Below are positions 1-18,900 of a stretch of DNA of 64,000 nucleotides, one piece after another. Both the position numbers and the translations under genes were made by a program. Below the pieces are notes generated by a model. The model saw only the letters and a program-made list of their open reading frames with translations. It ran no database searches and was not told where the DNA came from. Position 1 is the stretch's first letter. Each line of letters starts with the position of its first letter. This DNA is from an uncultured Chroococcidiopsis sp. (GTDB lineage: Bacteria; Cyanobacteriota; Cyanobacteriia; Cyanobacteriales; Chroococcidiopsidaceae): contig CAXTYC010000010.1 in NCBI GenBank assembly GCA_964248365.1, positions 64,001 through 128,000 on the forward strand, written 5' to 3'.

Positions 1-1
1 G

Positions 2-1135
2 GATACTCAAGGACGAGAATATCTAGATTTTGTGGCGGGGATTGCTACTTGCACTTTGGGACACGCTCATCCTGCTTTGGTAGAAACGGTAACGCGGCAA
101 ATTCAGACTTTGCACCACGTTTCTAATTTGTACTATATTCCCGTGCAAGCTGAGCTAGCCAAGTGGTTGATTTCCCATTCCTGCACTGATCGCGTGTTCT
201 TTTGCAACTCTGGGGCGGAAGCAAATGAAGGAGCGATTAAACTAGCTCGGAAGTATGCCCATACAGTGCTAGGAATTCAGCATCCTGTGATTTTAACAGC
301 GAATGCTAGTTTTCATGGCAGGACATTGGCAACGATTACGGCAACAGGTCAACCAAAGTATCAAAAAGATTTTAGTCCCCTAGTGCCTGGTTTTCATTAC
401 GTACCTTATAACGATATTGCCCTCCTCAAAGAAGCAATTGGGGAACTAGATGAAGGCGATCGCGCAGTAGCGGCAATTCTTTTGGAACCGTTGCAAGGCG
501 AAGGTGGTGTAAGACCAGGAGATATAGCATACTTCCAGCAAATACGCAAGATATGTGACGAAACTGGGATTTTACTTATCCTAGACGAAGTGCAAGTCGG
601 AATGGGTCGCAGTGGCAAGCTTTGGGGTTATGAAAATTTGGGCATTGAACCAGATATTTTCACCAGTGCTAAAGGCTTAGGCGGTGGTATTCCGATTGGT
701 GCTATGATGTGCAAAAAGTTCTGCGATGTCTTCCAAGCCGGAGATCATGCCAGTACATTTGGCGGAAATCCCTTTGCTTGTGCAGCAGCTTTGTGCGTGT
801 GTGAAACGATAGAACGGGAAAATCTTCTGCAAAACGTGCAATCACGGGGCGAACAGCTACGGAATGGCTTGAAGGCGATCGCAGCCAAATATCCCAGTCA
901 AATTACCGATGTACGCGGCTGGGGTTTGATTAATGGTATGGAACTAAATGCAGACATTCAGCTAACTGCTGCTGATGTTGTTAAAGCTGGCATAGCTGAA
1001 GGCTTGTTGCTAGTACCAGCAGGACCAAAAGTAGTTCGCTTTGTTCCACCTTTGATTGTTAGCGAAGCAGAAGTTAATACGGCATTGCAAGCAGTTGAAC
1101 GAGCAATGGCATCTGTAATGCGCGTAACCGTATAG
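2..1135 (+). CDS. argD: Acetylornithine aminotransferase (class III PLP), 5' end outside window
   Basis: Frame open from base 2 (DTQGREYLDFVAGIA); motifs FCNSGAEANE, SFHGRT, DEVQVGMGRSG, AKGLGGG, HASTFGGNP. Confidence 0.9.
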   Translation, partial: DTQGREYLDFVAGIATCTLGHAHPALVETVTRQIQTLHHVSNLYYIPVQAELAKWLISHSCTDRVFFCNSGAEANEGAIKLARKYAHTVLGIQHPVILTANASFHGRTLATITATGQPKYQKDFSPLVPGFHYVPYNDIALLKEAIGELDEGDRAVAAILLEPLQGEGGVRPGDIAYFQQIRKICDETGILLILDEVQVGMGRSGKLWGYENLGIEPDIFTSAKGLGGGIPIGAMMCKKFCDVFQAGDHASTFGGNPFACAAALCVCETIERENLLQNVQSRGEQLRNGLKAIAAKYPSQITDVRGWGLINGMELNADIQLTAADVVKAGIAEGLLLVPAGPKVVRFVPPLIVSEAEVNTALQAVERAMASVMRVTV

Positions 1136-1168: not shown

Positions 1169-1202
1169 CAAAAAAGCCCGTTTCACTTCTTGTGAGACGG
1201 GC
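1169..1202 (-). terminator. Intrinsic terminator-like hairpin between argD and the intI remnant
   Basis: GCCCGTTTCAC-ttctt-GTGAGACGGGC stem preceded by an A-run (U-tract on minus strand); may be bidirectional. Confidence 0.55.
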
Positions 1203-1223
1203 AAGTTATTATCCAGGGCTTTT

Positions 1224-1640
1224 CGATAAATTAGTACCGTAAAGTAGTTTAATAAGAAGTTGATAAACACCCGATAATTGATTAAAAATTGCTAAAACTT
1301 ATGGCTTTATTAAAATAGTTGTTATATCTCGATTTTGCTTTGCCCTGACTGCATCAACCTTTAAATCTAAATCTTGTTTCAATACCTCTTTATATAAAAA
1401 TAGAATGGCATGGAAGTGCTTGATTTTGATTCGATTCAGCTACGTTTTCATTGAGGGCTAGATGGGTGAAAAAAACCTCTTTTTCCTTACCTCCCATATC
1501 CTTGGGATGATGTTTGTCATGAAAAAGAATGTATCGCCGAATTCAGTTAATATAAGTTTTTTTCTGTTTGGTAAGAATAATGCTTAAGCCGAATTAAGTC
1601 TTGCAGTTGCGGCACTCAGCTTTTTCGGGCGTTATTCCAT
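1224..1640 (-). pseudogene. intI: Integron integrase remnant (N-terminal SAM-like domain to Box I), frameshifted and truncated
   Basis: Manual minus-strand translation across frameshifts: ME*RPKKL..QLQDLIRLKHYSYQTEK.TYIN*IRRYILFHDKHHPKDMGGKE..FFTHLALNENVAESNQNQAL.HAILFLYKEVLKQDLDLKVDAVRAK...VLAIFNQLSGVYQLLIKLLYGT; typical IntI N-terminus, ends at the LLYGTGLR box. Confidence 0.85.
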
Positions 1641-1702
1641 AGAGTGATATCTAGAATTTATCTGTATAATGCTCTAATACAGTTGTTATTTAGAAAAATT
1701 CT

Positions 1703-1723
1703 GGATAACACCAATAGTTATGT
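1703..1723 (+). other. Putative attI site
   Basis: ATAAC-accaata-GTTATGT inverted core pair ~70 bp upstream of the divergent intI start; GTTATGTGGC (1717-1726) complements GCCGCATAAC (2417-2426) with one mismatch. Confidence 0.65.
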
Positions 1724-1827
1724 GGCTTAAGTTCAGCAGTTGTGGCAGTAGTTTGAATGTTATGTGTGGATGTTCAACATCAAAGCGAATCTTAGACTCA
1801 AGATAACAGTGCATACATTGGTAAGGT

Positions 1828-2406
1828 ATGGGAGCAGACATATACATCTACGCTGAGATTCGGAAAGATGATGACTGGGAACCTGTACCTGAACCTGCTG
1901 TTTCAAGGTCTAAGAAAGTTCCTATTGACTCAATCAATCTTCCTTGTACTCGCCCATATCGATTATTTGTCATGCTTTCAGGCATTTATCATCACGCTGT
2001 TTTAGGCGTGGCAAGACCTATTTCAGAGCTACGAGGATTTCCAGATGATATGAATGCTGTTTACAAAGAGTATTTTGACCAACACGGTACAGGAGTTGGA
2101 CGTTCTTAGTTAATGGTTGGAGAAATCATTAATTACAAGTGGGATAGTGAGTTTGTGATGTATAGAGCTTGTGTTGATAAGAAGTACGCTCCGCTATTTC
2201 ACGAACGTTCTCCTTTCCCTGATGCCTTTCCAAAGGGCGCTTCCATCTATCACACACAACAACCTGGTACTGTTTAGGTTTCGTGGAAAAGTAGTTGTCG
2301 AGAATTTGTGAACTTAGACCACGAAACCTGTTTAGAGGACTTCATTGAGGAGTTACTAAAGCTAGGAGATCCAGATAAAGTAAGGATTATTTTTTTGTTT
2401 CTTTAA
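1828..2406 (+). pseudogene. First integron cassette gene, hypothetical protein with two in-frame TAG stops
   Basis: Frame continues past TAG at 2107 and 2275 to ...LLKLGDPDKVRIIFLFL*; bounded by attI and an attC R'' box 11 bp after the stop. Confidence 0.7.
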
Positions 2407-2416
2407 GTTGAGATAC

Positions 2417-2450
2417 GCCGCATAACAATCCCGTTGCACACTGACCGCAT
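2417..2450 (+). other. Left half of an attC site (R'' and L''), right half lost
   Basis: GCCGCATAAC-aatcccg-TTGCACACTGACCGC; followed at ~2461 by a repeat element instead of L'/R'. Confidence 0.6.
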
Positions 2451-2460
2451 CAAGTGAAAT

Positions 2461-2558
2461 TTCTAGGCAAGCCACCCATGCCCACGATTATCAGAAAGAG
2501 CGGGCAGGGGTGGCAAACCCCTTCATCTACTGTTCACGAATGTTTTAGGATTGCTATA
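2461..2558. mobile_element. REP/MITE-like element copy 1 (ends CTGTTCACGAATGTTTTAGGATTGCTATA)
   Basis: Same terminal ~29 nt at 38104-38132 and 63457-63485; internal GCCACCC..GGGTGGC hairpin. Confidence 0.7.
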
Positions 2559-2816
2559 TAATAATGAACCATTCTACAATGGTCTATGTATTACTATTTA
2601 TGCTGCTGATTATATCTGCTCTCATCAAGGTAAGTAGATTAGGACGAACTCACTAGATGATCGAACAACACTTGAACAAGCATATTATCAGCAAAATATT
2701 CTTATCACGCATTAAGATCACTTGAATGTGGTTGATGATAAACTCCTAACTCTATAGCAAATCAAGCATCTATCCAATTTTTTAAAAGATGCGCCAGATA
2801 ACGTTTTTGCATATAT

Positions 2817-3072
2817 TGGAAAATGGGTATATTGAAAAGAGGTTTACGTGAACTTGGCTTGTCGGAAGATATGCCCCGCGTTGGCTGGCAAAGAGGATAC
2901 TATCGCTGTCCCCTAGCTCAGAACTGGAAGGAATATCTGCTGGGAGACACAAATCGAGTAGTATGGCGAGAGTTTACAAAAGAGAGATTTGGTAAGCTAC
3001 TGGCATGAACGGTGGGTTGCTCCAAGACTGGATATGCTGCAAACCAATTTGGAATTAGAACCTATTTTGTAG
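2817..3072 (+). pseudogene. C-terminal fragment resembling Druantia DruA (DUF4338), frameshifted
   Basis: WKMGILKRGLRELGLSEDMPRVGWQRGYYRCPLAQNWKEYLLGD...(+1 shift in AG run ~2985) LVSYWHERWVAPRLD; resembles the DruA C-terminus as recalled, not searched. Confidence 0.5.
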
Positions 3073-3153
3073 AATTTGCCAAACTTTATAGGATAAATCA
3101 TATCTTGCATGGCTCAGGTAGAGGGGGTATTGTGTTTAACCTATACTTAGGTT

Positions 3154-3570
3154 ATGCCCAGGTTAGACATCATCCATGACGCTGTAAAAAATGCACTGAT
3201 AAAGGACGGCGGGACGATTACAGACGATCCCTACATAATTCAGTATCGAAGAACAACGTTGTACGCTGATCTTGGTGCTGAACGCCCTATTGCGGCTGAA
3301 CGCAATGGACAGAAGCTTATCATTGAAGTCAAAAGCTTCGTTGGCGCATCAAAAATACAAGATTTGAAAGAAGCTCTCGGTCAGTACGATATCTATCGCT
3401 ATCTTTTAGAGGTAACAGCGCCAGAGCGCAAACTTTATGTTGCTGTCAGTGTAGTCCCTTATAACACCTTTTTTAAGCAGGACGTGGTTCAACTCATTCT
3501 TAATAGACACCAACTTCCACTCATTGTCGTAGACATAGAGGTAGAGGAGATTACGCAATGGATAAATTAA
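3154..3570 (+). CDS. xisH: XisH family protein (PD-(D/E)xK-like fold)
   Basis: HDAVKNALIKDG..ITDDP..ADLGAE..IEVKSF..ALGQY signature. Confidence 0.92.
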   Translation: MPRLDIIHDAVKNALIKDGGTITDDPYIIQYRRTTLYADLGAERPIAAERNGQKLIIEVKSFVGASKIQDLKEALGQYDIYRYLLEVTAPERKLYVAVSVVPYNTFFKQDVVQLILNRHQLPLIVVDIEVEEITQWIN

Positions 3571-3902
3571 CTGAGTATCCCAAGCTAATCAAACGTATCT
3601 TGGCGGAATATATAGAATTGTGTAACCGCCGTTCCGACCGAGACATCGAAACATTCTTGATTGTAGATGAGCTAAAGGGTCACTATATTTGGATGAACCT
3701 TGGTTGGCAAAATGGCGATCGCATTACTGGTATGACAGTTTACGTTCGTATTCGTGATGGTAAGTTCTGGATCGAGGAAGATTGGACTGAAGATGGCATT
3801 GCAACTGATCTAGTTCGTGCGGGTGTTCCCAAGGAAGATATCGTGTTGGCATTCCACGAGCCTAAGATGCGGCAGTACACCGATTTTGCCTCTGCGTCGT
3901 AG
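3558..3902 (+). CDS. xisI: XisI family protein
   Basis: MDKL..Y, GKFWIEEDWTEDGIATDLVRAGVPKEDIVLAFH; overlaps xisH stop. Confidence 0.92.
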   Translation: MDKLTEYPKLIKRILAEYIELCNRRSDRDIETFLIVDELKGHYIWMNLGWQNGDRITGMTVYVRIRDGKFWIEEDWTEDGIATDLVRAGVPKEDIVLAFHEPKMRQYTDFASAS

Positions 3903-3912
3903 CAGTTGTACA

Positions 3913-3999
3913 GGCTAACAACCCATTGGAGCGGACGGACGAAAGCCTTCGGTATCGTGGCATAAGGCTGTCTACCGCCGCTCATCTGTGCCGTTATGC
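3913..3999 (+). other. Complete attC recombination site (87 bp)
   Basis: R'' GGCTAAC, L'' TG(G)AGCGG(A)CGG pairing with L' CCGCCGCTCA leaving two extrahelical bases, R' GTTATGC; starts 11 bp after xisI stop. Confidence 0.85.
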
Positions 4000-6096
4000 C
4001 GCAGCTAAGCCACTATGTCTGAGTAAAGGCTCGGTACTCGGTTCGCGTCCTCGGAAGGACTTAAACACCTCCATCGGGTGTTTGCTACCACCCAAAGCCA
4101 GGACGGTTTCGCGGAAGCGCTTACCAGTAGCAGTTATAGCCTGAGAATCTTCCAAGCCAGCTTCTTCAAAAGCACTGAAAGCATCAGCGCTTAATACTTC
4201 AGCCCACTTGTAGCTGTAATAACCTGCGGCATAACCCCCCGTAAAGATATGCCCAAACGAGCATAAAAATGCATCTTCTGGTAGAGGTGGCAAGACAGTA
4301 GTTGTTTTAGCAATGCGGTTACGCACATCATTCACACTTTCACTACTGCCTGGTTGATAGCGGTGATGCAGTTCTAAGTCAACTAAGCCAAAGTGTAACT
4401 GTCGCAGCATAGCACTACCACTCATATAATTACGAGCAGCCAACAGCTTTTGATAATAATGTTCTGGCAAAGTTTCACCTGTTTCGTAGTGCTTCGCCAT
4501 TCCCAGCAATGTCTCGCGGTGGTAACACCAGTTTTCCATGAACTGGCTGGGTAGTTCGACGGCATCCCACTCGACATTATTGATTCCGGCTGCTCCTGCG
4601 TAATCTACCTTAGTCAGCATATGCTGCAACCCGTGACCAAACTCGTGAAATAGAGTTTCCACCTCTCTGAAAGTCATTAAGCTGGGCTTACCATCTACTG
4701 GGGGTGTTTGATTACACACCAAATATGCTACTGGTTTGCGGGTAATAGTTGTGCCATCGGTTGTAGTAATTTTGGCACGACCGATGCAATCATCCATCCA
4801 AGCGCCGCCACGTTTTTCGGCTGGACGACTGTAGGGATCTAAGTAGAAGTAGGCGATCGCTTCCCCTGATTCGTCAGCAATTTGGAAATACCGCACATCC
4901 TCGTGCCATACTGGAGCTTGACCATCGGCAGCAGTAACGGTAACACCAAAAATCCGCTTTACTAGGTCAAACAACCCATTTAGCACTTGGGGTAGAGGGA
5001 AGTAAGGACGCAGTTCTTCATCACTAAAGGCAAATTTTTCTTCTCGCTGGCGTTCAGCCCAATAGCTAACATCCCAGTGCTTGAGATCGTTAGCTTCCGG
5101 TGCGCCTTTAGATGCAGCAAAGGCTTTTAGCTCCTCAAACTCTTTTTTAGCAGCATCATAACTAGCACGGCGCAGTTCTTCATGTAGCGCCTCTACTGCG
5201 TCATAACTAGGAGCCATTTTACTAGCTAAGCTTAATTCAGCATAGCTGTTAAAGCCAAGTATATTTGCTTCTTCCTGACGCAGTTGTAAAATTCGTTCAA
5301 TGATTTGTGTATTATCTAACTCACCGGATGAAGCGCGGCTGATGAAAGCCTTATAAAGTTTCTCCCGTAAATCCCGACGTTTGCTGTGTTGCATGAAGGG
5401 ACCATAACTGGGGAAATCTAGAGTAATCCGCCAGGGACCATTTTCAGCAGTGGCATTTTCTTCACCCGCAGCACGAGCAGAAGCAGCAGCAAGACTGAGT
5501 AGGCTGGGGGGTAAACCGTCGATTTCGTCTTTGTTTGTCAGAGTAAGGCTAAAAGCTTTAGTAGCGTCTAAGACGTGGTTGGAAAATTTAGTAGAAAGTT
5601 CTGCTAATTCTAGCTGAATGGCGTTGAAGCGATCGCGCTTCTCTCCCTCCAAACCTACACCCGAAAGTTCGGCATCTCTAATCGCTGCTTCCACAATTCT
5701 TTTTTGGGCATCTTCTAGGCTATCCCATTCTTTACTATCCCGCAGCGCCTTAAAAGCTTCATACAGTGGTTTACTTTGATTGAGCTTATTGTAGAATTGC
5801 ACTACTTGGGGTTGTACGGTTTCGTAAGCCGTTCGCAATTCTGGGCTATTCTTCACACCCATTAGATGCCCAACTATACCCCAACTCCAGCGTAGGCGAT
5901 CGCTCAAGCGGTCTAGTGGCTCTACTAAGCCGCTCCAAGTGGGTTGCACTTTTGCCTCTAATTTGCTAAGTTCTGTTTCTAATTCTGCCAGCAGCTGCGT
6001 CATCGCTGGCTCAACGTGTTCAGGCTTAATGGTTGCAAACGGTGGTAGTCCCTCACCAATCAGCAACGGATTATCAGTAACTGTGCTTACACTCAT
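3994..6096 (-). CDS. prlC: Oligopeptidase A (M3 family)
   Basis: HEFGHGLQH zinc motif, EKRGGAWMD, WDAVELPSQFMENW, GYAAGYYSYKWAEVL. Confidence 0.95.
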   Translation of the reverse strand: MSVSTVTDNPLLIGEGLPPFATIKPEHVEPAMTQLLAELETELSKLEAKVQPTWSGLVEPLDRLSDRLRWSWGIVGHLMGVKNSPELRTAYETVQPQVVQFYNKLNQSKPLYEAFKALRDSKEWDSLEDAQKRIVEAAIRDAELSGVGLEGEKRDRFNAIQLELAELSTKFSNHVLDATKAFSLTLTNKDEIDGLPPSLLSLAAASARAAGEENATAENGPWRITLDFPSYGPFMQHSKRRDLREKLYKAFISRASSGELDNTQIIERILQLRQEEANILGFNSYAELSLASKMAPSYDAVEALHEELRRASYDAAKKEFEELKAFAASKGAPEANDLKHWDVSYWAERQREEKFAFSDEELRPYFPLPQVLNGLFDLVKRIFGVTVTAADGQAPVWHEDVRYFQIADESGEAIAYFYLDPYSRPAEKRGGAWMDDCIGRAKITTTDGTTITRKPVAYLVCNQTPPVDGKPSLMTFREVETLFHEFGHGLQHMLTKVDYAGAAGINNVEWDAVELPSQFMENWCYHRETLLGMAKHYETGETLPEHYYQKLLAARNYMSGSAMLRQLHFGLVDLELHHRYQPGSSESVNDVRNRIAKTTTVLPPLPEDAFLCSFGHIFTGGYAAGYYSYKWAEVLSADAFSAFEEAGLEDSQAITATGKRFRETVLALGGSKHPMEVFKSFRGREPSTEPLLRHSGLAAA

Positions 6097-6442: not shown

Positions 6443-7822
6443 CTATACAAATATTTTTACAATTTTAAGGTCATCTGGCTTTGATTCATACTCATCGCTT
6501 TGAATTGCTTCTAAAAACTTGGTAGAAAACCTTGATTTGTCCTTCATAAAATCTTCAAACATAACCAACGGTAAGTAGGTCGTCTGAAATAAACAGCGAA
6601 CCGTGTGTTGGCGGATCTGTTATGCAGCAAGGGTTATCTATGTTGACGGTTCGCTGTTTATTTATGACTTTGTACTTAGTAGTACGCTTTCAACTTCTAC
6701 ATCATCCTCATTGAAGATAATCGTCTCAAATCTAAATCTATAGCCAGACCATCTGATAGTAGGTAGTCTATCTACTGCGTCCTGTAAGTATTTTATTATG
6801 TTGTAAGTTTTTGGATCAGGATTTTTCTGCCCCTGCTCTACCCACCAATAAACATTGTGCCTAACAAAGTGCTTCCCATTTCCATTAGTACATACCTCTA
6901 TTTCCACACCGTCTACAAACAAAAACTGACGAGACATTTCTCTAGCTTCGCCTTCTGGCATTGGTTCTAATTCCTCCCAAGGTTCGACTTCAATAAAATC
7001 TTTATGCTTTTGCTGCTGATGTTTGACTGTAAGCTCTATCGCAATAGGATCATCTTCTAATGCACCTAGACTTGAAGCGTCTTCCTTTAGCTCTGGTGTA
7101 TTCTCTATAATTGTTTCTAGCTGCTTGCGACTAAAAGCCATCAGCTCTACACCTGCTACCGTCCGACGAGTCGCATCATGCATAAAATCGACTAATCCCT
7201 GAATCGGAGCTAGGTCTATTCTTATACCGTTGTACTCGGTTTCCCAATACCCAAATTTACCTAGAGATTTAGGATCTGTGTGGTATTGTTTCCACTTCAA
7301 AGAGCTAGCTTTTTTATTGATGTTTCTTAATGCACTGCGTATGCTACCTGATACACCGCGCTTGCCATACACGGGGTAAACTAAATATATTGTCGGCGGT
7401 TCTTCTTCAGCAATTGGGTTAAACCCAAATACCATAACATTCAACTTGGTTAGCTGTTGAAGGCTTTGTTGTAAAGCTATTTCAACTGAAGTTATTTTTC
7501 TAACTGGTACTACTACTTTTGACCAATTCAGCGGCGGCTTGTATAATTTTATAAACTGATCTTCGAGATTTGAGAGAGTATTGATATCATTACTACAAGT
7601 TATCCAGCTAATACTAACGCGGTCTTTTCGATTAAACCTTTTTAGCTGGTTAAATCTGTGGTGCTGTCTCCAACGCTCAACTAAGTTGACTGTTCTACCA
7701 ATATAAAGAACATGACCTTTACTGTCAGATACAAAGTAAATGGCTGCACAATTGGGGAGATTATTTCTGTCTAATAAATAAACTGATGGCAAGTCAGACA
7801 ATTTGATGTTTTCTAATAACAT
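6443..7822 (-). pseudogene. GIY-YIG nuclease-domain protein with 3' end interrupted by a MITE
   Basis: AIYFV..VLYIGRTVNLVERWRQH..LEDQFIKLYKPPLN; removing 105 bp at 6574-6678 restores frame ESVLL-PLVMFEDFMKDK.. to a TAG at 6443. Confidence 0.75.
6572..6678. mobile_element. 103 bp MITE with TA target duplication (IS630/Tc1-like ends)
   Basis: TA|AGTAggtcgtctgAAATAAACAGCGAACCGT ... ACGGTTCGCTGTTTATTTatgactttgTACT|TA; 18 bp perfect internal inverted repeat. Confidence 0.85.
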
Positions 7823-12238: not shown

Positions 12239-15200
12239 CTAATTAACTTTGAATTGACTAGCACTAGTTTGCAGTTCTTGCGCCAGTGCTAGCAGTTCCT
12301 TAAATGAGGCTGAAACGATTGTTGCATCGTTTGAGGTTTGACTAGCACTTGCTGCTACATCAGTCATAGCAACAGTCACAACTTGTGAAACTTGTGATTG
12401 CGCTGCTGCTGCTTGGCCGATCGCTGCCACTGATTCACTAATTTGTTGGCTAACAAAGGTAATTTTATTCAGATTCTGACGAGTCTCATCTACTAATTTT
12501 GTTCCAACAACTACTTGCTCTTTACCAGCTTCCATCGCTGCCACCACTTCGTTGGTTTCTTTTTGAATGTTTGCGATCAAATTTTCGATTTCTGCTGTTG
12601 CTTCGGCTGATTGACGGGCAAGAGTTCGCACTTCGTCGGCTAATACAGCAAATCCTCGCCCTTCATCCCCAGCACGAGCTGCTTCAATCGAAGCTTTCAA
12701 TGCTAGCAAGTTGGTTTGAGCTGCAAATCTGCCGATCAAGCTCACCACTTTAGAAATCTTTTGTGAAGATTCACCCAATTGCTTGACTTTTTTCGATGTT
12801 TCTGTTATACTTTCCCGAATTGCCATAATTCCATCAACGGTGCGGTTCATTGCCGCATCCCCAGCTGCTACTGTCGTAGTTGCCTCCTGGACGGCTGCTT
12901 CTGCTATGGCAGCACTTTGCGTCACTGCGCGAATCGAAAGAGACATTTCTTGAATTCGATCTAGTGTTGATGCAATTTCTTCGGCTTGCCGTAGTGCTTC
13001 AATAGACAGTTCTTGTACTGCACCTTCGTTGCTGGTGGTGGTGGATGTGACTTGTTGTGCCGCTGCTTGCACTTGGCTGACAATATTGCGTAAGTTGTTA
13101 ATCGTGGCGTTGTAGGAGTCAGCGATCGTACCAATTTCATCTTCAGTCACGCTGGCACGGATAGTAAGGTCGCCTTTATTAACAGGGTCAACTTCCATCA
13201 GCAATTCCAAGGCGCGACGCTGGAGTAGTTCTTTGGCACTCTTTTGCTGTTCGAGTAGGTGGAAGCGATCTAAAGCAAGTCCCACTTGCGTGGCAAGCTG
13301 GGCAAATAAATCAATTTCTGCCTGTTGCCATGCTCTTGGTGCAGAACACTGATGGGCGATCAATAAGCCTAGTAGCTTTCCTGCTTGCAAAATTGGTGCT
13401 ACTAAATTGGCTTTAACCTCAAATGGTTCAAGTTGTTTGATGTGACACGGGGTTAGACCTGCTTTGTAAATATTCTCAGTAGCCCCGATGCGACCTGCGC
13501 GATACTTTTCTACATATCTATCAGCAAAACAGGGATCGGCAATTTTGGCTCCTAAAGCGCGAGGGAAACCACTGGCAACAGATTCAGCAATTACAGTGCC
13601 TTGCCAATTTTCATCAAAGCTGTAAACGACGACGCGATCGCTATTAATTGCTTTTCGGATTTGGGAGACAGCAGTATCAAAAATTTCTTTGGGTTGTGCT
13701 GTTTGCGCCAGATGTACAGTAATATCTTTAATCATCTGTGCGCGCTTGGCTTCTGTTTGCTGCTGTTCTAGTAAGCTCTCTCGGTCTAAAATCAGTCCCA
13801 GTTGACTTGCTAACTGTCGCAGAAAATCGATTTCTGACTGCTGCCACTCATGGGGTGCATTGCAGTGATGGGCAATTAGCAAACCATAAAGTTGGTCGTT
13901 TTTTACAATTGGTGTTACCAAATTGGCTTTGATTTGCAGTCGTTCCATTAACTTTTGATGCTCAGGGTGGAAACCCGCACTCATCACATTATTTGTAGGA
14001 ACGACACGACCTTTTCTGTATGCTTGTATGAGATCATCTCCAATACAAGAGTCTTCAATTTTGTCATTCAGAGCGCTCCGCCAACCAGGTAGCACAGATT
14101 CATTGGCAATGTAGCCGCTCCAGTCTAGGTTGAAGCGATAGATGACTACTCGCTCTACCTTTAGGAGTTCTCTAGCTCCTGTAAGTGCTTTGTTGAAAAC
14201 AGATTCCAAGCCTTGAGAGTCATTTGTACCGGAATTGCCAATATCAGCAAAGAATCTAGCTCGTTCTGCTTCGAGTTGACGGGCTTCCAGGTTAGCCTCA
14301 ATATTAGCCGCCATCTGATTCAATTCTTGGGAAAGAATGCCAATTTCGTCATGACTGTGGGTGGTTTCTAGTCTAATACCTTCTTCTCCGACTCCGACAG
14401 CTTGAGCAAAACTAGCTAAACGTTTCAATGGGCGAGAAAATGAGCCAGCAATTGGAATACCAACTAGACCAACCAACAGCAATATACCTCCCCCAATGCC
14501 ATAAGCTGTGAGTTGCTGATTTCTTAAGCTAGTATCTACTTCCTTGAGAGACTGACCGATATAGGCTATGCCTACAGGCTTTGCTTGGTCAGGATTGAGT
14601 TCCTTTTGATGGTCATACAAGGGGCTATAGAATGTTAGATACGGCTGACCTATAATATTTGTTTGACCGCTAAACTCTTGCCCCTGATTGAGGACTTTCT
14701 CTGCTACCTCTCTGGCAACCCGCGTTCCCACCGCCCTAGTTTTACCGTCTGTGTAGGGAACATTCGTAGCTACCCGCCAGTCGTGAGCAAATACAGTCGC
14801 ACTAGGTAGTTTGTAATTTTGCGAAAATTTGTCCACTAAGACGTAGTTGCGGTTTTGCACTGCCCCTACGATGACAGTTCCCACTAGCTTATTGTTGATT
14901 TTGATTGGATAAACAGCCATAGCGACCAAGCCTACTTTTCCTCGGTCAGTGTCGTAAGTTCCTTCGGGGAAGGGTTGCTTGGATTGAGGTAAGTCCTTAG
15001 TAGGTTGTGGTCGCAAACCGATATCTGCCTGTTTCTCTAACCCTAAACGTTGGAGTGATTCTTTTTTCAGCAACTCCATACCAGCTAAAGGGCGTTGAGT
15101 TTTTAATGTGTCTTTCACAATTGGAATATCTGCTAAGTTAATCCCTACTGGTAAAGATACTGGGCGATATTTTGGCTCGGTTAATTCTTGGTTATTCTCG

Positions 15201-15757
15201 GCTGGTAGAGGTGGATTACTAGAAAAATCCTCTGCCAGAATTTGAATATCCTGAGCAACTGTTCTACCCTGAGCATCAGTGAAAATTTGAAAGTTTTTGT
15301 TGCTCTGAGGCTCTCCACCATTTTGGATTGCGAGGAAATTTTGTAAAAAGGCACGACGGGCAGATACTTCACTAGGATTACTCAAATCGATTTTAGTAAC
15401 TTCTATTAGCTTAGCCAGGTTCTTTGCTTGTGATTGATTTTCTACTTGTGTCCCAAGAACATACTCTTTTTTAAAGGCTGTCCCGTCCTTTTGTAGAGAT
15501 TCTTTTAATGTTTTCAACTGATAGTCTTTATTAAGAGTAACTAACCCTTGGGTAACAGCAATCGTAGGCAGGGCAGCACTAATCATTAAAATAAGAGTGA
15601 GTTTAGTACGAAAGTTTAGGTGATTCCAAGGTTGAGTCAGGGACTGTAAAAAAGAAGAAGGCTTACTGGGTTTTTGTTGTGGTGGTAACTTTGATTCTGG
15701 TAATTTTGGATCTGAATTTGATACTTGGATAGGTTTTTTGATCGGATAATCTAACAT
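12239..15757 (-). CDS. pixJ: Phototaxis MCP 2: TM, Cache-like periplasmic domain, HAMP, two CBCR GAFs, MCP signalling domain
   Basis: GAF1 DSCIG/HPEH, GAF2 [36 protein letters not shown]; start chosen at ATG 15757 (track starts at GTG 15781). Confidence 0.85.
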
Positions 15758-15804
15758 GGCGGTTACTCTAAAACTTTTCACTTCAAAGCGGGAACTTGTC
15801 TTGT

Positions 15805-15966
15805 AGGGGCTGGGGGCTAGGGGCTAGGGACTAGGGGAGGACAAGGGGACAAGGGGACAAGGGGGAGATGGACAAGATAAAGAATTCACTATTGTGACTA
15901 CTGACTACTGACTACTGACTCCTTTTCCCTTTTCCCTTCTAACCTTTAGCCCCTAGCCTCTAACCC
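15805..15966. repeat. STRR heptamer tracts (representative; also ~8478-8506, 12050-12232, 35170-35200, 47478-47535, 52745-52785, 59040-59270)
   Basis: (GGGGCTA)n, (GGGACAA)n, (GACTACT)n, (AATTACC)n, (TTCACAC)n, (TTCATCC)n. Confidence 0.8.
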
Positions 15967-18900
15967 CTAACTAACTTTGAATTGACTGGCGCTAGTTTGC
16001 AGTTCTTGCGCCAGTGCTAGCAGTTCCTTAAATGAGGCTGAAACGACTGTCGCTTCGTTGGAAGTTTGATTTGCGATCGCCGCTACATCAGTCATCGTAG
16101 TCGTCACCATCTGTGAAGCTTGCGATTGTGCACTCGCCGCCGTTGCGATCGCACCTACTAATTCACTAATCTGTTGACTGACTGAGGTAATTTTGAGCAA
16201 ATTCTGGCGCGTTTCATGCACTAGTACGGTTCCCGTCACCACCTGTTCTGTACCAGCTTCCATCGCCGCTACTACTTCGTTGGTTTCTTGTTGAATATCC
16301 TTCACTAGACTTTCAATTTCGGCTGTAGCTTCTGCTGATTGACGGGCTAGTGTTCGCACTTCGTCAGCAACGACAGCAAAACCGCGTCCTTGTTCTCCAG
16401 CATGAGCAGCTTCAATCGAAGCATTCAGCGCTAGCAAGTTGGTTTGGTCGGCAAATGTACCAATCAGGTTCACCACTTTGGAAATCTTTTGCGAAGATTC
16501 GCCCAAACGCTTGACTTTTTTCGATGTTTCTGCTACTGTTTTGCGAATTGCCATCATTCCATCTACAGTGCGGTTCATGGCTGCATCCCCTGCTGCTACT
16601 GTTTGCGTAGCTTCTTGTACCGCGGCTTCTGCTTGCTGGGCGCTTTGGGTTACTGCGCGAATCGAATTCGACATTTCTTGAATTTGATCTAAGGCGGCTC
16701 TAATTTCTTCGGTTTGCCGCAGTGCTTCTTTAGAAAGTTCTTGGACTGCACCTTCGCTGCTAGTGGTGGTTGATGCTACTTGTTTTGCCGCTGCTTGCAC
16801 TTGGGTAACAATTTTCCGCAAACTGTTAATTGTGGCGTTGTAAGAGTCTGCGATCGTACCAATTTCATCTTCTGTCACATTGGCACGGATGGTGAGGTCG
16901 CCTCTACTAATTGGGTCAACTTCCATCAGCAGTTCTAAAGCGCGGCGTTGGAGTATTTCTTTAGCACTCTTTTGCTGTTCCAGCAGCATGGCGCGCTCAA
17001 GGGCAAGTCCCACTTGTGTCGCCACCTGGGAAAACATATTAATGTCCTCTTGCAGCCAAGTCCTTGGTGCATTACACTGATGGGCAATCAATAAGCCCAA
17101 AAGTTTCCCGTTGCGCATAATCGGGGCGACTAAGTTTGCTTTAACCGCAAATTGTTCGAGTTGGGCAATGTGACAATCAGTTAAACCAGCATCATAGATG
17201 TTTTCGGTAGCTTGGACACGACCTTGAGTATATTTTTCTACATACCTATCGGCAAAACAGGGGTCATCAATTTGCGCTCCCAGTGCTTTGGGAAAACCAC
17301 TGGCAACGGATTCAGCAATTACTGTACCTTTCCACTTGTCATTGAAACCATAAACGACGACGCGATCGCTTTTAATCGCCCCGCGAATTTCAGCAACAGC
17401 AGTATCTAAAATTTCTTGTGCCTGAATACCTTGCGCTAGTTTGAGGGTGATATCTTTAATTTGTGAGGCACGTTCAGCGGTAGCTTGTTTTTGTTCTAAG
17501 AAAGATAAGCGGTTTAAGATAATACCCAGCAAAGCTGCCAGCTGGGTGAGAAAGTTAATTTCCCCTTGCTGCCACTCATGAGTTTCTGCACAATGATGGG
17601 CAATTAGCAAGCCAAATAATTGGTTATTTTTGAGAATTGGTGTTACCAAATTGGCTTTGATTTGCAGTCGTTCCATCAAGTTTTGGTGTTCAGGGTGAAA
17701 ACCCGCACTCATCACGTTGTTGGTGGGAACGACACGACCTTTTCTATAAGCTTCTATCAGGTGTTTACTAATACAAGGATCGTTGATTTTGTCATTCAGA
17801 GCGCTCCGCCAACTAGGTAGCACAGATTCAGCCGCGATGTAGCCACTCCAGTCAGGGTTGAAGCGATATACGACTACTCGATCTGCTTTGAGGAGTTCTC
17901 TAGCTCCTCGTACTGCCTTATTGAAAACAGACTCTAGTTCTTGAGATTGCTGATCCTTTGCTGAAGCGATAGCAGAAAGGAAGTTTGCCTGTTCAGTTTG
18001 GAGTGCTTGGCTGCTGACGAGGTTCTGCAACTGAATTGCCATCTGGTTAATGTTTGACCCCAGAATTGCCAGTTCGTCTTTACCTGCTACAGCAATGCGG
18101 GTATCAAGTTCGCCTTGACCTAATTTTTCCACCGCATCAGCAGCAGCTAGGATGGGACGAGTGGCTCGGTTTGCTAGGTAAGCAGCTACAGCACTTACTA
18201 CTAATGCTGCTATTCCAGTTCCAATTGCCAAAGTCAGCAGCAGTTGTCTCTGTGGTTCAAATACAACGAGTGTGTCTGCGCTAAGAATTACATCCCAGTT
18301 TAGATCTGGTAAACCTTCTAGTTTTTCAAAAGGCGCGAAGGTTATTAACTGTTGATGATTGCTACTTTTTTCTATTCCTATTACCGAATCTACCTTATTT
18401 CCTTGTTCCAGTTGCTCAAAATTGGGTAAATGTTTCTTAGCTTCTTTACCTATGTCATCTTTTTCCGTAGCTGCTAAAACTTTCTTAGACTCGTCGATCA
18501 GATAGTATTGGTTGTCATTGGTCTTGAACGATCGTAGTAGCTGTTCAAAGGCTTTTATAGGCATACGCGCTCGCGCTATGGCAATCGTTTTACCAGTAAT
18601 AGGATCTTTAACAGGTGCGGCGAAGAAAATGCAGACATCTTTTGTCAGTACTGAAACTTCTTCGGTAATTACAGGACGACCAGTTTTAAGCACTTGCGAA
18701 AAATAATTTTGCTCTTTAAGTTTGCCATTGGGAATAGGCTTCCCTTGGGACTGAGCAATTACGTTGCCATCGAGATCGAGAACGGCAATGCTTTCATAGA
18801 CACTGTAAGCTTGTATAACGCGGTCTAGGATTGCTTGTTTTTCCTGAACGGATGTTATCGCCGCTAATTTAGGATCGCGGAACACTGAGTAGTTAGCCAC

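Follow-up and report, generated by a model that had tools for sequence, protein, structure and literature searches.

Remains of a chromosomal integron between argD and prlC in a Chroococcidiopsis genome: a truncated integrase, a probably secondary cassette junction and the wreck of a putative defence cassette

What occupies the interval between the convergent genes argD and prlC in an uncultured Chroococcidiopsis sp., and how it came into its present state, is the question raised by a stretch of 64,000 nucleotides (positions 64,001 to 128,000 of contig CAXTYC010000010.1, hereafter the window) of the assembly GCA_964248365.1, which comprises 102 contigs and is 99.97% complete (G000; the other G-numbers denote genomes of relatives and L-numbers the loci examined). 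An original prediction, made from the sequence alone, had proposed a hidden, decaying chromosomal integron at this place. Our analysis leads, with a probability of roughly 85%, to a chromosomal integron whose integrase gene is cut before the catalytic residues, whose terminal crossover falls on the stop codon of prlC and whose history followed the steps proposed further below. The element can likely no longer recombine and is being eroded by deletion. The coordinates of its parts are collected in Table 1.

In tblastn searches with integrases of relatives, positions 1227-1633 of the minus strand aligned in three frames, with 66-83% identity per piece to the closest of these and combined E values down to 6e-44, which bears out the frameshifted IntI N-terminus read from the letters in the original prediction. 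Measured against the gene of G026, +1 frameshifts lie near 1616, 1563 and 1413, stops interrupt codons 3, 32 and 113, and the homology runs out in box I at residue 137, just ahead of the first catalytic arginine. The arginine after box I is a catalytic residue of tyrosine recombinases. Neither catalytic residues nor the IntI-specific C-terminal insertion are present and nothing past residue 137 was found in the assembly, in agreement with the predicted loss of the catalytic half. A stop-free piece (1402-1542) matches integron-integrase families, rather than other recombinases, as the only NCBIfam entries at E<=0.01 (TIGR02249, 3e-10), and also Phage_int_SAM_4 in Pfam. The N-terminal half is 69-74% identical to integrases with full-length members above the TIGR02249 cut-off, and the remnant adjoins the array in divergent orientation, as expected of an integron.

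A profile search of the source assembly for an intact IntI gave no match above the TIGR02249 cut-off, the best other tyrosine recombinases being 25-27% identical over long stretches and all below it; therefore no helper integrase is visible, and contig gaps could hide one. Other contigs from metagenomes have the window's intI junction together with cassette 1 and are without 1507-1762 (joint 1506->1763); a further deletion joint seen at this locus is 1227->1562. As these contigs have the same intI junction, the loss within the integrase gene must be of some age and is no artefact of assembly. Cassette turnover may plausibly have continued after this deletion by means of an integrase from elsewhere. 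Among 40 loci of relatives with any intI trace, 19 have by our own count nothing past about residue 150, or at most the last codons, a count that is biased in that some loci were fetched with the window's intI N-terminal half and others are truncated where their contig stops. In G003, G001, G004 and G006 (L222-L225), the last intI codons alone survive after the Na/Ca exchanger gene and form a hairpin directly 3' of the convergent gene, as if retained as a terminator. In the window, the 24 nucleotides at 1203-1226, shared with the sister genome G005, were compared with 12 intI 3' ends, for which 34 of 1000 shuffles reached an equal score, and with repeat 2, for which none of 1000 did, repeat 2 having been picked after the fact.

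At the far end of the array stands the only complete attC of the window, attC2, with the R'', L'', L' and R' boxes, the extrahelical bases and the bottom-strand hairpin expected of such a site. Folding of its bottom strand gave -20.4 kcal/mol (z -3.0), as against a z of -2.2 for the top strand. A covariance model for which only relatives supplied the 13 seed attCs recognised 3913-3999 on the bottom strand (67.6 bits, E 5e-17), and the site shows two extrahelical positions, just as had been predicted; the seed sites covary, 10 of 16 pairs being altered on both sides. Neither of the two outcomes named beforehand as refuting the integron, a better match to other tyrosine recombinases and an attC left unscored by the model, was observed. 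The half attC predicted near 2417 likewise exists as the left arm of attC1, which over 40 nt shares 93% of its bases with an attC that is complete in G017; the sequence profile scored it weakly (13.5 bits) and the covariance model gave no report. The hairpin repeat (repetitive extragenic palindrome-like, REP-like) that follows has 43 matches at about 35 places across the source assembly, and another copy lies at about 38,050 of the window. A search against Rfam returned nothing close to threshold. Elsewhere in the source assembly the covariance model found four further attC matches, two of them strong, and attC or half-attC sites with no integrase nearby occur at C20:10534-10621, C25:33649-33735, C34:52187-52269, C75:5318-5412 and C4 ~212,420, the one on C25 after a methyltransferase/restriction-like gene group.

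The original prediction had further read the locus as turning into an attC cluster without an integrase (CALIN). This part did not hold: a CALIN is defined, in the accessible text of PMC4889954, by two or more attC sites, and since only one complete site is left, the element has decayed beyond this and would be classed as a remnant with a single attC. Such a remnant could in principle be a lone cassette at a genomic site (single attC lacking an integrase, SALIN) next to an unrelated integrase fragment, and lone cassettes do arise in this way in experiments (10.1101/2022.09.11.507474, in the part available). For the window this origin is extremely improbable, since the intI fragment, the palindromes and the first cassette stand in register as in intact relatives and the platform recurs in the G005 allele, where its primary attI is degenerate, which contradicts a lone cassette.

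The right end of the element is defined by the G|TTA of attC2, which is the prlC stop codon on the opposite strand. The prlC end was recovered from 19 of the 22 family genomes searched, and in three of these 19 (G003, G004, G011) the site is empty, prlC abutting argD with a short spacer and no integron. The sister genome G005 carries the same platform at the same site, with still less intI, a degenerate primary attI and the hairpin 1176-1202 kept; its array holds other cassettes (AIPR, a TacA/GNAT pair) and terminates at the same base as that of the window. Comparison of the interval in relatives, from which a full intI and different cassettes had been anticipated, thus yielded the different cassettes but even less of the integrase. 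By eye and among the metagenome matches listed, 3993/3994 is reached by at least six different attC-like arms, of which one is G005-like, and two ends resemble empty sites; a pattern scan of metagenomes for the prlC end found none and a protein scan found 80 loci, mostly distant. With one common end base in G005 and in the metagenome alleles, the prlC stop codon is, on this sequence comparison, the fixed right half-site. At a second locus (L082, L083, L091) the terminal G|TTA is likewise the stop codon of a convergent gene (DUF4335). A general preference of terminal crossovers for stop codons was considered and set aside, since two of about 12 loci inspected by eye are not demonstrably above chance.

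The left junction requires comparison with the intact platforms of relatives (n=14), in which several palindromic units upstream of intI, 4-6 in phase, are followed by a core whose spacer measures 5 bp and which mostly reads TAAT AAATA G|TT, this primary attI lying 102-295 bp from the intI start. The window retains only units 1 and 2, the first of which is found at equal distance in relatives, and its crossover lies only 77 bp from the intI start; the relatives' primary attI comes about 180 bp further on. The TAAC-N7-GTTA at 1706-1720, which had been noted as a divergent site, is present and does mark a cassette junction; the clade's primary attI it is not. That the crossover at 1717/1718 is real follows from 1717-1726 matching the complement of 2417-2426, the end of cassette 1, at 9 of 10 bases. 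Similarly, the TATAAT at 1665-1670 noted as pointing into the array exists, but as the right arm of a repeated palindrome that in most relatives is without TATAAT there; a promoter scan found it without a paired consensus -35 (10 sites found versus 7.2 expected).

In G020 (L200) a cassette occupies the unit 2/3 junction: GATAAC ACCAACA G|TT stands on its left side, and its attC is followed by the displaced G|ATATAC together with the other units and the primary attI. Because L200 holds a cassette at the same junction, the site in the window is read, from the sequences, as probably a second entry point between palindromes 2 and 3, the remaining platform having been excised later. A deletion scar could mimic it, if cassette 1 had used the normal attI for its entry and a loss of about 100-190 bp had joined palindrome 2 to what remained of the primary attI, its last bases. 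The match of AATAG|TT to the primary spacer AAATAG|TT, the ACCAAGG G|AT of the unoccupied unit 2/3 junctions in L186 and the deletions common at this locus (the joints given above) all speak for such a scar, which we consider possible but doubtful, since the independent L200 has nearly the same junction and keeps G|ATATAC and all further units behind the cassette, which a deletion cannot give. In another relative (L097, ~2,440) a platform is interrupted within palindrome 2 at G|TT, possibly a further secondary entry.

Platforms of this type are scattered over the family. An integrase above the cut-off occurs in 7 of 27 other family genomes, and platform remnants adjoin genes for phosphorylase, TenA, DUF1257, ferrochelatase, Na/Ca exchanger, PrmA, ABC-2 permease, NIF3, short-chain dehydrogenase and others. 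The source assembly itself has a second remnant (C9 ~92,300-93,200, after aroA) with an intact primary attI, a GNAT gene and no attC, whose first two palindromes closely match those of the window; in G005 this site holds no platform. The resident integrases of three loci are not monophyletic (approximately unbiased test, p 4e-10, 0.006 and 8e-5; 17 longer rows, broken genes included with gaps, two rows under half length; 3 of the 33 rows, shorter than 70 residues, were dropped from the trees), and at the phosphorylase locus identity reaches 89-91% in the flanking gene but 68-69% in intI. A Kovacikia minuta plasmid carries the same platform type with two attCs and is possibly one vehicle; movement may have been by the platform's own integrase, transformation, plasmids or transposons. 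Four of 40 loci (L092, L196, L201, L274) have a same-strand attC beyond intI or a second attI inside the array, which reads, on sequence, as platforms embedded in arrays.

For the argD-prlC platform this raises the possibility that it arrived whole as one circle, integrated by its own integrase at the prlC stop (attC x genomic GTT) with the prlC terminator pushed to the left end. Such an arrival would suit the terminator-like minus-strand hairpin directly preceding GTTA at 1205, the related platform at aroA that is missing from G005, the same-strand attCs beyond intI, the non-monophyletic integrases and the genomic GWT insertion demonstrated for cassettes (10.1101/2022.09.11.507474, as far as its accessible text goes). 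However, 1203-1226 may be merely the end of intI, G005 has GTCA in place of GTTA, no GTT junction is common to the 12 intI 3' ends listed, and the same pattern would result from transformation with homologous flanks or from trimming of the right flank by excision, which together make integration as a circle rather unlikely.

Of the co-oriented small genes that had been noted between the two ends, xisH and xisI are intact (Pfam matches in Table 1) and the rest are pseudogene pieces, which, with the broken attC1 and a deletion of about 3.3 kb, agrees with the eroding array proposed at the outset. The cassette 1 gene has four intact homologues (42-90% identity) and no known family; its Atlas neighbours, unnamed and largely viral clusters, are a lead only. 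Positions 2557-3902 are, judged by alignment to intact copies, one wrecked nurA-herA-druA-xisH-xisI cassette, in which the 3.3-kb deletion fused nurA to druA and removed herA. XisH and XisI we take to be a toxin-antitoxin-like pair. The only intact cargo both in the window's genome and in G005 is the terminal two-gene pair, which fits retention of toxin-antitoxin-like modules. The idea that xisH-xisI generally spread as cassettes was dropped, since 0 of 29 xisI loci across the order had a scoring attC and one had an R'' remnant.

Table 1. Features of the argD-prlC interval and its flanks in the window
Feature	Position	Strand	Remarks
argD, acetylornithine aminotransferase (left flank)	1..1135	+	TIGR00707, 505 bits, over cut-off; 5' end beyond window
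Hairpin (1176-1202) with A6 run on its left	1170..1202	-	putatively terminator-like for minus-strand transcription (intI or originally prlC)
Residual 24 nt common to window and G005	1203..1226	-	probably last intI codons (R..LDN), or inverted platform palindrome copy
intI pseudogene	1227..1640	-	residues ~1-137 of ~321; three frameshifts, three stops; stops short of catalytic Arg at box I
Platform palindrome 1	1644..1670	.	right arm contains TATAAT (1665-1670)
Platform palindrome 2	1685..1709	.	ends TAAC at +69 from intI start, like L084, L092, L186
Cassette entry junction ACCAATA G|TT	1710..1723	+	crossover 1717/1718
Cassette 1 gene	1828..2406	+	192-codon pseudogene, TAG at codons 94 and 150
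attC1 left arm (R''-L'')	2420..~2451	+	R'' box 2420-2426
REP-like hairpin repeat	2452..2560	.	replaces attC1 right arm and start of cassette 2
nurA fragment	2557..2814	+	residues 65-150 of 410, with stops
druA-like (DUF4338) 3' fragment	2815..3089	+	residues 274-355; fused to nurA fragment
xisH, intact	3154..3570	+	PF08814, E 1e-51, full length
xisI, intact	3558..3902	+	PF08869, E 3e-41, full length
attC2, complete	3913..3999	+	crossover 3993/3994; right half = prlC stop codon
prlC-like oligopeptidase A (right flank)	3994..6096	-	Peptidase_M3; NF008159, 718 bits, below cut-off 927

Intact, the large cassette measures about 5.0 kb and encodes NurA (410 residues), HerA (552), a DruA-like protein (358), XisH and XisI. 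It lies first behind a clade-type attI in Pantanalinema rosaneae (L305) and between two attCs in a Pseudanabaenaceae genome (L283), and an attC follows it in L312 and L266 (G017). In L305 the attC after it is split by a 3.5-kb insert (12,800-16,390) which resembles a group II intron. Separate nurA-druA fusion deletions, with herA lost and xisH-xisI spared as in the window, are seen in Nostoc (L318, L319, L321), that of L319 being in frame (415 residues). Of the Nostoc copies, four with xisH (L278, L279, L318, L319) gave no attC match, L278 being cut inside xisH, and L321 was excluded for size; a nurA protein search gave no plasmid match. The nurA-herA-druA core occurs in many phyla (NurA identity 61-92%); of 44 loci, 34 had enough downstream DNA, herA being present in 31 and druA in 33 of these. 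That this core is a cassette everywhere found no support, since a heuristic for attC gave a signal behind druA at 2 of 33 loci, as against 3 of 135 control windows; outside cyanobacteria mostly no attC was found beside it.

As to function, the best sequence match of HerA in PDB is TdpA (E 7e-23, residues 372-538 of the L305 copy), the best solved relative of NurA is, by a weak match, TdpB (E 0.028; PF09376 over cut-off), and the DruA-like protein matches PF14236 (E 3e-64) and the PADLOC DruA profile (E 3e-83). Its model (predicted local distance difference score, pLDDT, 87) has a predicted GNAT fold, and in structure comparison phage Mu Mom came joint top (Z 9.1, 173 residues aligned). Mom is a DNA-modifying enzyme, and TdpAB destroys unmodified DNA. 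The intact cassette may thus, as we tentatively propose from the models and with somewhat less than even confidence, combine modification and restriction, the GNAT-fold DruA-like protein marking the cell's own DNA and the HerA motor and NurA nuclease destroying what is unmarked.

Put together, the history would begin with the platform (intI, 4-6 phased palindromes, attI) settling once the lineage had separated from G003/G004/G011, with the GTTA at the prlC stop as its right half-site. Cassettes would then have been gained, including the 5-kb nurA-herA-druA-xisH-xisI cassette; cassette 1 would have used the G|AT that separates palindromes 2 and 3, and the primary attI would have been excised later along with the palindromes beyond. 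A deletion of about 0.55 kb in intI would have come next, and finally the hairpin repeat would have broken attC1 and the 3.3-kb deletion gutted the large cassette, leaving xisH-xisI alone intact. Several points weigh against this account. The order of events is undated; the origin of the left junction is not documented by any close empty allele; the spacer ends in ..ATA G|TT like the primary attI and not in the ..AGG G|AT of unoccupied sites, so that plain deletion also fits the third step; and with stop-codon crossovers at 2 of about 12 loci and 146 of 2516 long open reading frames ending in TAAC, an excess over chance across loci is not established. For the cargo, the GNAT matches are tied within 1 Z unit, Mom standing level with ordinary acetyltransferases, Foldseek returned no match at E<=0.001 and the similarity of NurA to TdpB is weak. 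Beside the element, the minus strand at 6662-7822, upstream of prlC, encodes a GIY-YIG domain protein, with shorter open reading frames at this place in G005.

The remnant itself represents the ordinary fate of a chromosomal integron. What the locus adds is a lone attC traceable to a full integron, a kind overlooked by C-terminal-profile searches, together with indications of a second entry site in a multi-box attI, a stop-codon half-site and in-place replacement of integrases, at odds with the common understanding of integrons as not self-mobile. It also ties a widespread and apparently unnamed nurA-herA-druA block to integron transport, in cassette form and with intact copies in named cyanobacteria. 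A far-reaching, distinctly speculative and on balance unlikely extension would be that the cyanobacterial platform is mobile, its integrase copying intI and attI into new GWT sites such as the stop codons of convergent genes, overwriting resident platforms and shedding a portable attI head through the inter-palindrome sites, with the five-gene cassette and its Mom-like acyltransferase, marking self DNA for the HerA-NurA destroyer, as one cargo. Literature searches, with subscription journals mostly outside their range, gave no publication joining NurA, HerA and DUF4338/DruA as a block, which supplementary system lists could name, none linking XisH, XisI and integrons, and none on a multi-box cyanobacterial attI.

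The attI1 of class 1 integrons has L and R boxes and accessory repeats. With it the cyanobacterial sites share these boxes, the G|TT crossover and repeats upstream (10.1101/2022.09.11.507474, available part), whereas the accessory sites here are 4-6 inverted-repeat units and an inter-unit junction took a cassette in G020 and probably in the window. With CALINs and SALINs, the former covered for cyanobacteria together with complete integrons in the accessible text of PMC4889954, the element shares attC without a working integrase nearby (no TIGR02249-level match in the assembly); it differs in having one and a half attCs and a visible origin from a complete integron. The pseudogene search described in the available portion of that literature used a profile of the IntI C-terminus, a part missing from a remnant like this one. 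Decay of intI is well described for the Xanthomonas chromosomal integron, where Gillings' earlier screen is also summarised (10.1101/2025.06.18.660453, in the text available); frameshifts, stops or large deletions in intI, frozen arrays and lineage-specific loss are common to both. In Xanthomonas, however, intI stands at one locus (ilvD) in nearly all genomes according to the same text, whereas platforms of the cyanobacterial family occupy more than 10 neighbourhoods and one locus can hold integrases of different clades. Defence and toxin-antitoxin cassettes are common in integrons (PMC8618304, in its accessible part). The TdpABC phosphorothioate system (An et al. 2025 as cited in PMC12914056, in the portion available; PDB 8WET) has in common with the core of the large cassette a HerA-type ATPase, on the weak TdpB match perhaps a NurA-type nuclease, and the three-gene layout, but here DUF4338, for which a GNAT fold is predicted, takes the third place, and in cyanobacteria xisH-xisI are added and an integron cassette is the form of transport. 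Druantia type I shares the DruA component (PF14236, PADLOC DruA), whereas the DruA-like protein of the present cassette is partnered with nurA and herA.

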